43,059 nt of DNA from Acidobacteriota bacterium. GTDB taxonomy: Bacteria > Acidobacteriota > Thermoanaerobaculia > UBA5066 > Gp7-AA6. The notes under the pieces were generated by a model. That model made no database searches. It was not told the DNA's origin and saw only the letters and a list, made by a program, of their open reading frames with translations. Made by a program: the position numbers and the translations under genes. Positions within the stretch are counted from its first letter, which is position 1. Every line of letters begins with the position of its first letter. This document shows, in pieces, positions 4,339-5,547 of the stretch. The stretch lies in NCBI GenBank assembly GCA_040004075.1, contig JBDUBP010000046.1, positions 1 to 43,059 on the forward strand. The letters run 5' to 3'.

Positions 4339-5437
4339 GATGTCGCACTCGACCGGCCTCGGGCGCTCGCCGGGCTCGAAGCGGGAGCGAAGGCCTGCGC
4401 GGACCACTGGCGCTCTCGAGGCGTCGACTGGCGGCGTACAACACCCGGGAGAGCGCCGAGGACCTCGAAGATCTGAGGCAGGCGCTCGGCGTCGAACGGC
4501 TGCATCTCCTCGCGGAAGCTACGGCACGCATCTCGCCCTCGCCGCGATTCGAGCGCACGGCTCGCGAGTGGAGAGCGCCGCATTGATCGGCGTCGTGGGT
4601 CCCGATCATCTCCGCCGGGTCCCATCGTCAGCCGAACGCCAGCTCGAGGAGATCGGGCGCCTCGTCCTCCGCGAGCCGGGGCTGGCGGCGCGCGTCATGG
4701 ATCTGACGGGGCTCGTCCGCAGGTTGCGTGATCGGCTCGATGCGCATCCGGTCACCGTCGAGCTCGAGACCCGGGAGGCGGGGCGCGTGTCGGTCGCGGT
4801 CGGCAAGTTCGATCTGAAATGGTATGCGCGCGGGCTTCTCTCTTCCCGGGAGACGATCGCGAGATTGCCGGCGGTCTCCGCCGCGATGGACGGCGGCGAC
4901 TTTCGCGAGCTCGGCGCGGCGGCGCTCGCATGGCGTTCGAGCCCGGTCCCTCCGGCTTCCGTTTTCACGATGCGCTGCGCTTCGGGGGCATCGAGGGATC
5001 GGGCGGCGCGCATCGCGGCGGAACGGGAGCGCGCCATTCTGGGCGACGCCTCCGATCTCGCGGAAGAGCGGATCTGCCGCGCCTGGGGCATCGAGCCTCT
5101 CCCCGAGGAGTTCCGATCGCCGGTCGTGTCGAACGTCCCCGCGCTCTTCGTCAGCGGCACTCTCGACGGGGATACCCCGGAAGCCAACGCGGAGGAGGTG
5201 GCCCCGGGGTTCCGAAACGGGTCGCGGCTCGTCATGGAGGGCGGCGCGCACGGCCTGCTGGCTCTGGAGGACCGCGCCGCTCGCGCCGCCCTGCTCCGAT
5301 TCTTCGAGACCGGGCGCGCGCGGTCCCAGCGGCTTCCGATGTCCGCCCTCGCGTTCGAGGCTGTGGCTTCGCCGCGGCCCCCGCTGCTGGCGGGCGGCGT
5401 TCCCACGGGCATCGCGCTCTTCGGCGGGAATCCGTGA
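4339..5437 (+). pseudogene. alpha/beta hydrolase (S33/TAP-like peptidase family), frameshifted and 5'-truncated
   Basis: Family-typical segments lie in three different frames. DVALD...KACADHWRSRGVD is in frame 1 up to about 4428. LAAYNTRESAEDLEDLRQALGVERLHLL is in frame 3 (4428-4511). GSYGTHLALAAIRAHGSRVESAALIGVVGPD (nucleophile elbow GxSxG) is in frame 2 from 4514 to the stop at 5437. Too little room remains upstream before the divergent gene start at 4222. Confidence 0.6.
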
Positions 5438-5547
5438 CGGAAGAGGGTTGAGAGTCGAGAGTTGAGAGTTGAGAGTTGAGAGTTGAGAATTGAGGGTCGA
5501 GAGTCAACAGTGAAGAACTGAAAACTGACGGCGGCGAGCTGACGGCA
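5436..5547. repeat. tandem heptamer array, about 16 units (core GAGAGTT x4, flanked by GAGGGTT, GAGAGTC, GAGAATT, GAGGGTC, GAAAACT and others)
   Basis: Read directly. Strict 7-nt phase runs from the stop of the pseudogene (5437) to the stop of the PilZ gene (5549). Confidence 0.9.

Follow-up and report, generated by a model that had tools for sequence, protein, structure and literature searches.

Heptanucleotide tandem arrays at gene ends in a soil acidobacterium of the Thermoanaerobaculia and its relatives

The 43-kb stretch of DNA analysed here (contig JBDUBP010000046.1, positions 1 to 43,059 of the forward strand, 63-71% GC; hereafter the window) comes from a soil acidobacterium of the Thermoanaerobaculia and carries a series of tandem arrays built from units of seven nucleotides (nt). 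The arrays are a known phenomenon in a new host: they are long simple sequence repeats (SSRs) of the heptanucleotide class, closest to the GGGAATC repeats of Xanthomonas, with several families coexisting. They belong with the (GGGAATC)n arrays of Xanthomonas, the short tandemly repeated repetitive (STRR) and other heptamers of the Nostocales, the (TAACTGA)n arrays of the Beggiatoaceae and the heptanucleotide elements of Geobacter, and they are neither classical terminators, nor one mobile element, nor an artefact of assembly. We favour, with a probability of roughly 0.55, the reading that they are microsatellites made and resized by slippage-type events in a lineage biased toward 7-nt units, and left by selection at sites where they do no harm.

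Arrays were detected with Tandem Repeats Finder (TRF), by direct reading of the sequence and with a lag-k self-match scan, which was compared with 40-50 dinucleotide-preserving shuffles. TRF returned 14 period-7 rows in the window, with 2.6-8.9 copies each, and the lag scan found 10 arrays at k=7 against 0.12 expected. The harmonics k=14 and k=21 yielded 8 and 4 arrays, respectively, and every other k from 4 to 22 yielded 0-1; the excess is specific to period 7. A preliminary description of this DNA had listed at least 12 period-7 arrays. TRF or direct reading finds an array at each of its sites, that at 58-78 being weak, and relatives of the window are enriched as well. The arrays are as follows.

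58-78, no strand assigned: GGGAATC GGGAATC TGCAATC; weak, with two perfect units, under the TRF threshold and at the window edge.
5443-5504, plus strand: about nine units of GAGAGTT (8.9 copies by TRF).
5443-5547, plus strand: the same array with the in-register degenerate heptads that follow GAGAGTT (AACAGTG AAGAACT GAAAACT GACGGCG GCGAGCT GACGGCA), about 15 units in total.
14778-14809, plus strand: (CGATTCC)4.6, which is GGGAATC on the minus strand; 30 nt past the DUF885 stop, in a convergent spacer, adjoining a dispersed element described below.
19721-19757, plus strand: perfect (CGATTCC)5.3; in a convergent spacer, 31 nt past the stop of sthA and with 3 nt left before that of the SDR.
21898-21953, plus strand: (CGGAAGG)4.4 followed by (AGGCGAA)3; begins 5 nt past the stop of the PLD-family gene, ahead of the DUF5329 start.
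22374-22414, plus strand: (GAGCGTY)5.9; codes for the final 7 codons and the stop of DUF5329.
22445-22485, plus strand: (CCTCCCG/CCTTCCG)5.9, reverse-complementary to the array at 21898; falls within the permease ORF (minus strand), in its unconserved C-terminal tail.
27205-27246, plus strand: (TCAGTTY)~5, degenerate (by TRF 27211-27242, TCAGTTT, 4.6 copies); between the HIUase stop (27199-27201) and the uricase ATG (27254).
28116-28142, plus strand: perfect (GGGCGAA)3.9; 23 nt past the uricase stop, in a convergent spacer.
28218-28236, plus strand: (TCCCGTW)2.7; absent from the preliminary description.
38423-38449, plus strand: (TCAGTTM/TGAGTTC)~4, read as NAACTGA from the minus strand; lies upstream of mmsA, 46 nt from its start, the spacer being divergent.
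38571-38593, plus strand: (TCCCGCC)3.3, weak; shares the divergent spacer of the 38423 array and was likewise absent from the preliminary description.
42875-42924, plus strand: (GTTGAGA)7.4 with one interruption; begins within the last 6 codons of the histidine kinase.
43005-43044, plus strand: (AACGCCG)5.7; 112 nt past the histidine-kinase stop, the downstream gene lying beyond the window.

The closest genomes, whose proteins are 93-96% identical to SthA of the window, are those of uncultured Thermoanaerobaculia/Acidobacteriota metagenome-assembled genomes (MAGs), and their loci (numbered with an L below) are syntenic with the window. The syntenic loci L001-L007 and L009 carry 0.7-3 period-7 arrays per 10 kb, and L008, L010 and L021 carry none. 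Array-bearing MAGs include JBBRDK01, JAIVJS01, JBBROA01, JBBSGZ01 and DATNMZ01; L008 belongs to DASQJK01 and L021 to JALZAT01. Metagenomic relatives were recovered with the PLD-family protein (80 loci, 570 kb, 60-84% identity); here the lag scan found 65 arrays of period 7 against 0-6 at any other period from 4 to 12. The close clade holds 28 period-7 arrays in 183 kb and loci from other phyla 3 in 514 kb, a difference in density of about 26-fold, and in those other phyla periods 6, 9 and 12 (coding repeats) predominate. The trait is restricted to one Thermoanaerobaculia subclade. Low-score TRF output for a Nitrospiraceae MAG (L012) suggests degenerate heptads at 1734-1763 and 1823-1846, including an inverted pair CGTYATT / ACGAATG; Nitrospiraceae loci look array-rich in such output, but none passes the stricter lag scan. 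Contigs more than 99.5% identical and assembled from independent samples (L061/L111, L073/L078 and L007/L053) carry identical arrays, which excludes the assembly artefact that the preliminary description had asked to be considered.

The arrays show a preference for gene ends. Genes were mapped from G+C content at third codon positions (GC3) and Pfam scans of 20 open reading frames (ORFs) of the window. Every array in the window lies in a spacer or in an ORF tail past the last Pfam domain. The 5443-5547 array occupies the entire convergent spacer from the hydrolase stop (5437) to the PilZ stop (5549), both genes assigned by Pfam. The Pfam domain of DUF5329 ends at residue 128 of 137, before the array-encoded end, and the C-terminal tails of the permease (domain end at residue 473 of 510) and of DUF6986 (residue 535 of 575) are read from array or element sequence. 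Arrays that extend into ORF tails often provide the stop codon: the histidine-kinase stop (42891-42893) lies inside a variant unit of the 42875 array, and in L002 the sthA stop lies within (AGCTGAC)n.

When junctions between neighbouring genes of the window were sorted by orientation, arrays were found in 5 of the 7 convergent junctions, 1 of the 7 divergent ones and 2 of the 22 co-directional ones (convergent 5/7 against 3/29 for all others, P=0.003). Across the clade, where a rough GC3 gene caller was used and counts are not fully independent because the loci are partly orthologous, the figures were 22 of 124 convergent (18%), 26 of 278 co-directional (9%) and 8 of 116 divergent junctions (7%; convergent against divergent, P=0.012). 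The bias favours convergent spacers, not every 3' end. The placement of the arrays at gene ends, chiefly between convergent genes, which the preliminary description had proposed, is upheld by these counts. Eleven of its 12 arrays begin within about 30 nt of a stop codon, overlap one or sit in an array-encoded ORF tail past the Pfam domain, the exception being 38423-38449 in its divergent spacer; the 43005 array, the second behind the histidine kinase, is 112 nt away from that stop.

To follow how arrays change, orthologous spacers were compared among relatives with 78-89% identity in coding DNA. Between sthA and the SDR gene there are (CGATTCC)5 in the window, (AGCTGAC)2-3.6 in L001, L002 and L004, remnants in L003 and L009, and overlapping stops in L008. 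Between HIUase and uricase there are TCAGTTY arrays in the window, L002 and L004, an array-less spacer of about 10 nt in L006-L009 and L021, and an inverted TCAGTTN/NAACTGA pair in L061 and L079. After the PLD stop, L004 has (CGGAAGG)5, L001 (GCGGTAG)3(GCGGGAG)3 and the window CGGAAGG followed by AGGCGAA, and in L003, L005, L006 and L009 GGCGAAN stands alone. Of 85 loci compared, 23 have an array at this PLD/DUF5329 junction, and at least 10 unrelated units are represented among them; where the array is absent the junction is a TGATG stop/start overlap. Array position is kept while unit number and sequence vary between related genomes, the array (TCCCGTT)2.7 in L002 and L004 being a conserved counterpart of 28218-28236; within the same spacer, arrays are gained, lost or unit-switched between species.

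Contig pairs that are 93-97% identical give a finer view. L088 and L090 differ by a 7-nt indel inside an array, and L075 and L079 differ in one array by a 14-nt indel and five shorter ones (5, 4, 2, 2 and 1 nt), for a total of 28 nt. Another three short indels, of 3, 1 and 1 nt, lie in or beside arrays, and outside arrays indels are of 1-2 nt only. Letter variants are grouped in adjacent units, with 153 switches where permutations gave 195 +/- 6.7, which is a signature of local duplication or slippage; (GCGGTAG)3(GCGGGAG)3 of L001 and (CGGAAGG)5 of L004, the latter standing where the window has CGGAAGG plus AGGCGAA, are examples. Arrays arise and resize in place by 7-nt steps, and variant units are amplified in blocks. 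The unit-number variation between related genomes that the preliminary description suggested looking for is present as 7- and 14-nt indels.

Four loci of the PLD/DUF5329 junction (L064, L075, L077 and L082) deserve separate mention, since their arrays lie just past TGATG, in the first ~40 nt after the PLD stop, and are apparently translated in frame. They read into a plausible DUF5329 signal peptide as its n-region (L082, for example, reads MMKSRVESRGSRVFGPALFVCVVVFLAA), and a change of one unit there would shift the reading frame. A mini-ORF of 16 codons, MSALSFKFSVFSSQPL, lies at 27201-27251 in the window. Its ATG overlaps the stop of HIUase, all of it is read from TCAGTTY array sequence, and its TGA precedes the ATG of uricase (27254) by 2 nt. 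This mini-ORF is probably incidental, as it is not conserved in L002.

The sequences of the units are not all different, as had been claimed. GAGAGTT is common to the 5443 and 42875 arrays, GGGAATC/GATTCCC to 58, 14778, 19721 and 28155, and CGGAAGG, GGCGAAN and NAACTGA recur as well. The 77 distinct arrays of the clade reduce to 48 canonical units, with a mean unit GC of 52% and NAACTGA as the commonest. A unit family is shared by 24% of same-contig array pairs lying more than 300 nt apart, by 8% of pairs on different contigs and by 2% of pairs with letter-shuffled units. In the TCAGTTN/NAACTGA family (21 clade arrays) positions 1-4 are nearly invariant and position 7 is random (1.96 bits), even in adjacent units. 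The proposed rule that units rotate to GA[AG]NNNN is weak and was overstated; what stands is that GAA or GAG occurs in 55% of the 77 clade arrays against 38% of composition-matched random heptamers. Stop codons within units are not enriched overall (52% against 47%), and the enrichment of TGA (39% against 22%) is due only to the AACTGA family. Variants are also concentrated in one heptad column (0.58 against 0.44). We did not use this concentration as a signal of constraint, because it is confounded by block amplification; only TCAGTTN counts here, as its neighbouring units differ at N.

Many arrays of the relatives are arranged as inverted pairs. Within the clade, 25 of 78 arrays have an inverted partner at a distance of 150 nt or less, against 1 of 78 in a reversed-only control, and in a further six the unit consists of a 6-bp palindrome with one extra base (CAGCTG+A, GTCGAC+A and TTCGAA+A). 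In the window, 0 of 10 arrays have an inverted partner within 150 nt. The arms of the clade hairpins are heptamer arrays, with a mismatch at each N, that is, at every seventh position, and their folding energies range from -30 to -54 kcal/mol. Such long hairpins are located at L057 1537-1620; L061 8936-9019 and 16558-16624; L070 2545-2622; L073 9751-9872 and 10717-10797; L075 542-636 and 4963-5028; L079 8898-9013 and 16935-17003; and L085 4317-4392. Some lie between co-directional genes, and several are directly upstream of start codons in apparent operons. In L061 and L079 the second arm (AACTGAN) ends 7-15 nt upstream of the uricase start codon.

An arrangement of another kind was seen around DUF5329. 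The sole inverted pair of the window (21898-21953/22445-22485) is 520 nt apart and brackets this entire gene; similar gene-bracketing pairs occur in L009 (13627-13658/14072-14107, again DUF5329) and in L071 (9021-9038/9823-9841, SDR). The bracketing units vary by lineage (CGGAAGG/CCTTCCG in the window, GGCGAAN/CTTCGCC in L009), and the arms remain complementary. This complementarity could be chance, given genome-specific unit preferences, or could reflect long-range pairing.

Two convergent spacers of the window also hold copies of a dispersed element of 50-76 nt, GTTGACCGCGGAGTACCGCGGCCGTCTCGCTCCCGTTGGTCGCTCGGCTCC, which opens with a hairpin GACCGCGG-AGTA-CCGCGGCC.

14811-14861, plus strand: copy GTTGACCGCGGAGTACYGCGGCCGTCTCGCTCCCGTTGGTCGCTCGGCTCC, with CGATTCC-like units flanking it.
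28154-28222, plus strand: copy with a CGATTCC-like left flank, inside the ORF tail of DUF6986 (minus strand).

Further copies are at 6537-6606 and 19839-19914 in L002, 6529-6604 and 19903-19978 in L004, 4744-4840 in L005 and 11461-11587 in L006. The element occurs only in the window, L001 (a 23-nt remnant), L002 and L004-L006, which are the closest relatives, and is absent from the array-rich loci L053-L132. It is found in three different convergent spacers, always on the same strand and with CGATTCC-like heptads on both sides, and it has no Rfam match beyond chance (E=0.68). Judged from its sequence, it looks like a repetitive extragenic palindromic (REP) sequence or a miniature inverted-repeat transposable element (MITE). 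The arrays themselves lack the features of REPs, their bacterial interspersed mosaic elements (BIMEs) or MITEs: they are direct repeats, not palindromes, and their hairpin loops differ between copies. Only the separate element (14811, 28154) behaves as a dispersed one. The preliminary description had also argued against a single mobile element, and we agree, as loops and flanks differ and orthologous sites hold unrelated units.

Several familiar roles for sequences at gene ends were considered and set aside. The window contains 25 terminator-like hairpin-plus-T sites against about 25 in shuffles (9 against 8.7, 12 against 9.9 and 4 against 6.3), and there is none in any of its array spacers; classical hairpin-plus-U terminators at the arrays, which had not been seen on first reading either, can be discounted. 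RNA folding of the array spacers of the window gave z from -1.7 to +1.7, like array-free controls, so these spacers are no more structured than shuffles. We therefore rejected the arrays as intrinsic (Rho-independent) terminators, given chance-level sites and spacer folding at z ~0. Rho loading on C-rich, G-poor RNA was not retained as an explanation for the arrays in general: G/C skew is lacking in the units most frequent in the clade (AACTGAN, ACAGTCG and AAGGTCC), although in several arrays of the window the sense strand of the adjoining gene is the G-rich one. Contingency loci for phase variation typically have their SSRs in promoters or 5' coding regions of surface or virulence genes, whereas the window arrays flank the 3' ends of metabolic genes; a partial fit is found in relatives alone, where arrays lie in frame in the DUF5329 signal peptide.

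How the arrays may have come about can be outlined as follows. Strand slippage or short tandem duplication during replication or repair would generate them. A lineage-specific bias toward 7-nt units, in line with the polymerase-footprint idea of Mrazek as later papers summarise it, would set the period, and loops of 7-nt size may evade MutS-type repair. Selection would then purge arrays wherever an indel that is not a multiple of three does harm, in coding DNA, promoters and ribosome-binding regions, and the survivors would accumulate past or across stop codons, mainly convergent ones, and occasionally in frame in the n-region of a signal peptide. Some arrays would gain an inverted partner, perhaps by template switching, and the resulting long hairpin may act in a REP-like manner, shielding RNA 3' ends or attenuating transcription. 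Based on this, the positional bias would reflect constraint rather than function. The preliminary description had reasoned from constant period and variable sequence to a structural or protein-binding role; such a role is possible, and slippage with purifying selection fits the data at least equally well.

A number of observations weigh against microsatellites as the explanation. Nothing in the analysis accounts for a period of 7 over 5, 6 or 8. Pure local slippage predicts unrelated units at unlinked loci, yet units are shared within contigs at the frequencies given above (24% against 8% and 2%), and GGGAATC and NAACTGA units recur in distant phyla. Inverted pairs involve a third of the arrays in the clade and give hairpins of -30 to -54 kcal/mol, and the TCAGTTN pattern looks, from its sequence, like constraint on a hexamer. 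Neutral eukaryotic microsatellites also show motif preferences, and for this reason the counter-points weaken the microsatellite reading without overturning it.

The same observations are the natural starting point for alternatives. The arrays might be functional cis-elements in a 7-nt register, either bound by an oligomeric DNA- or RNA-binding protein or acting as REP-like RNA that sets mRNA 3'-end stability, attenuation or coupling at gene ends in a genome devoid of classical terminators; we consider this possible, if somewhat doubtful. There are precedents for proteins that read such spacing, since omega of pSM19035 binds 7-bp heptads and HutP binds UAG-N4 repeats. A functional role would suit a unit vocabulary that is both genome-specific and clade-wide (24% against 8% against 2%), the persistence of an array at the same junction across lineages though its unit changes, the chance-level number of terminator-like sites, and the strong hairpins of a third of clade arrays, including the L061/L079 arm 7-15 nt before the uricase start. 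The hexamer-plus-N form of the TCAGTTN arrays, which has a parallel in (GGGANTN)n of Xanthomonas (PMC4692102), and the change in reporter output on deletion of Nostoc heptamer repeats (preprint, bioRxiv 10.1101/2022.06.06.494920) point the same way. It is harder to reconcile with the coexistence of many unrelated units (48 canonical in 77 arrays), with orthologous spacers of close relatives that have no array and no visible replacement, and with the absence of nearby inverted partners (0/10) and of excess structure in the window spacers. Moreover, N positions in the hairpin arms are unpaired, arrays invade ORF tails and signal-peptide coding sequence, and Rehm et al. found no regulatory role in Xanthomonas (PMC4692102). 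A stronger version of this idea would make the arrays the footprint of a dedicated, lineage-restricted system working in a 7-nt register at gene ends, either a DNA- or RNA-binding protein with one heptad per subunit or an enzyme that writes 7-nt units, and this we think unlikely. If it were true, the binding protein might replace hairpin terminators in 3'-end formation or shield convergent genes, and the signature of the system would be hexamer-plus-N units, genome-specific vocabularies and the recurrence of GGGAATC/NAACTGA across phyla, in Acidobacteriota, Xanthomonas, Beggiatoaceae, Cyanobacteria and Geobacter.

Spread by, or seeding from, small REP- or MITE-like mobile or recombinogenic elements, with the heptads as termini or target sites, would explain the same units at unlinked loci. 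The dispersed element, in one orientation in three convergent spacers with CGATTCC-like flanks on both sides, invites this idea, as do the likeness of inverted arrays to terminal inverted repeats and the sharing of units within a genome. Contrary to it, the element is confined to the closest relatives and absent from array-rich L053-L132, there is no element close to most arrays, copies resemble each other neither in hairpin loops nor in flanks, and arrays are amplified in blocks in place. No transposase or RAYT was noticed in the translations read or in the 20 Pfam-scanned ORFs, the other ORFs being unscanned, and on balance mobile seeding seems to us quite improbable. Less probable still is that the arrays regulate by forming G-quadruplexes (G4) or i-motifs, an idea put forward for the Xanthomonas (GGGAATC)n repeats. 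At 14778, 19721 and 28116 one strand of the array has at least four G3 tracts with 4-nt loops, a sequence that would allow G4, those at 28218 and 21898/22445 partly so, and (GGGAATC)n oligonucleotides do form G4 in vitro (PMC4692102). However, GAGAGTT, TCAGTTN, GAGCGTT, AACGCCG, AGCTGAC, AGTCGAC and most clade units have no G3 tracts, and with the mean unit GC at 52% G4 formation is not a unifying property; G4-capable and G4-incapable arrays also appear to behave alike in position. Microsatellites shaped by slippage and purifying selection remain our preferred explanation.

The gene map places serC, serA, a DUF1015 gene, a TAP-like hydrolase, a PilZ protein, a metalloprotease, DUF885, a pyridoxal phosphate (PLP) decarboxylase, plsC, sthA, an SDR, the PLD-family protein, DUF5329 and a GAF/PAS histidine kinase in the window, all from GC3 and Pfam. 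From 22408 to 39779 there is a contiguous block for purine and pyrimidine catabolism, which opens with a purine/allantoin permease and comprises allantoinase, allantoicase, OHCU decarboxylase, HIUase, uricase, DUF6986, xanthine dehydrogenase subunits, dihydropyrimidinase, a Pfam-unscanned ORF (35964-36836), mmsA and a DHODH-like dihydropyrimidine dehydrogenase. The place of DUF6986 among ureide genes hints at a role in the ureide pathway. Rfam gave zero gathering-level matches in the window. The 272-nt spacer at 34316-34587, which separates dihydropyrimidinase from the minus-strand gene that follows, is more strongly folded than its shuffles (z=-2.8 on the plus strand, -1.8 on the minus strand); it has no period-7 array, and a search of 34250-34650 gave no Rfam match at E<=1. 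The sole strong repeat of another period in the window is an 18-nt tandem repeat at 39778-39836, GACGGCGCCTGCGGGCGG in 3.3 copies with 92% matches, between the DHODH-like stop and the histidine-kinase start.

In many bacteria the long tandem repeats are predominantly heptanucleotide ones, and the clade described here offers a clean comparative system in which syntenic, closely related uncultured genomes occur with and without arrays. It allows the births, expansions and losses of arrays to be dated, genes that track the arrays to be sought, and the presence of 3' ends at arrays to be tested in soil metatranscriptomes. It could also serve to identify the driver of the period-7 bias. The finding extends a known phenomenon to the Acidobacteriota; by itself it leaves knowledge of the mechanism unchanged.

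Among the known systems, the cyanobacterial heptamers were the one analogue named in the preliminary description. STRR heptamers of heterocystous cyanobacteria were reportedly described by Mazel et al. in 1990. Their units are CCCCAGT (STRR1), TTGGTCA (STRR2) and CAACAGT (STRR3), none of which is among the 48 canonical clade units. The analogy is fair in that a single genome has more than one family of tandem heptamers scattered through its intergenic DNA, and the differences lie in unit sequences, phylum and GC, the host here being one of the Acidobacteriota and not a heterocystous cyanobacterium. The REP and BIME sequences of enterobacteria are imperfect palindromes spread by RAYT transposases, in 3' and convergent spacers. 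The arrays share this location, and the inverted-pair arrays of the relatives form comparably stable hairpins; unlike the arrays, REPs are not head-to-tail repeats of 7 nt, and window arrays have no palindromic structure. In Nostoc, TTTTGAA and GACYAAT heptamers also occur as several families; those studied lie near promoters or start codons, and the altered reporter output after deletion of heptamer repeats hints at a regulatory effect (preprint, bioRxiv 10.1101/2022.06.06.494920).

In Geobacter metallireducens, (GGGACCG)4 is found at 49 sites and (MTYCTGA)5 at 15 (Aklujkar et al. 2009, PMC2700814). Several multicopy tandem-repeat classes of that genome are reported to be mostly paired on opposite strands, and the heptamers have been interpreted as regulator sites or RNA elements (PMC2700814). 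Multicopy tandem heptamers and a TGA-containing family are common to both systems, whereas in Geobacter copy number is fixed at 4-5 units and some arrays lie inside genes. MacGregor (2015) described 169 TAACTGA arrays in the genome of a marine member of the Beggiatoaceae, with others in cyanobacteria and Bacteroidetes (PMC4679880). NAACTGA/TCAGTTN is the commonest clade unit, and exact TAACTGA occurs in L007 (10898-10937), L070 and L079. In the window the 38423-38449 array lies in the 5' region of mmsA, with GAACTGA, TAACTGA and AAACTCA-like units on the minus strand. The clade differs in its free seventh base, in arrays that are mostly 3' or in inverted pairs, and in that this is one family among many. 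Placement a few nucleotides upstream of start codons, typical of TAACTGA arrays, is not seen in the window (the 38423 array is 46 nt from the mmsA ATG and the rest are 3') and is found only for the second hairpin arm in L061 and L079.

The closest match is provided by Xanthomonas, which also corrects the belief that heptamer arrays had no precedent in a high-GC genome: Xanthomonas campestris (65% GC) has (GGGAATC)n, a unit found in the window too (PMC4692102), and both this work of Rehm et al. (2015) and the survey of Mrazek et al. (2007) speak against it. Rehm et al. reported 186 (GGGAATC)n/(GGGANTN)n arrays in X. campestris and 183 in X. axonopodis, both at ~65% GC (PMC4692102). Of these, 89-93% are intergenic. 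Their mean distance to the end of the upstream ORF is 28 nt, and between divergent ORFs they are depleted; position is conserved, length and sequence vary between species, and there are 70-75 convergent inverted pairs (PMC4692102). The arrays are transcribed and their oligonucleotides form G4 in vitro, and no function or regulatory role was found (PMC4692102). The likeness includes the identical unit (at 58, 14778, 19721 and 28155), high GC, intergenic location near the upstream ORF end, scarcity between divergent ORFs, and a kept position with variable length and sequence. Inverted pairs, frequent in Xanthomonas, involve 25 of 78 arrays in the clade and, within 150 nt, 0 of 10 in the window. 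The window and its relatives differ in that Xanthomonas has one dominant family, whereas several coexist here and most units are G4-incapable, that the window arrays are single and not paired, and that the host is an uncultured Acidobacteriota lineage.

According to the summaries in PMC4679880 and PMC4692102, Mrazek et al. found that in most SSR-rich genomes, among them Burkholderia, Actinobacteria, Xanthomonas and cyanobacteria, no class of long SSR is more abundant than the heptanucleotides, and proposed that slippage is favoured because 7 nt corresponds to the length of DNA that the polymerase grips. The dominance of heptanucleotides among units of 5-11 nt, the patchy phyletic spread and the proposal of slippage, as these summaries relate them, are all matched here; the Acidobacteriota are not named among repeat-rich genomes in the two summaries. 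A full-text literature search gave nothing that links heptamer repeats with Acidobacteria, Nitrospira or Thermoanaerobaculia. The convergent-spacer bias and the block-amplification statistics are new data for this clade.

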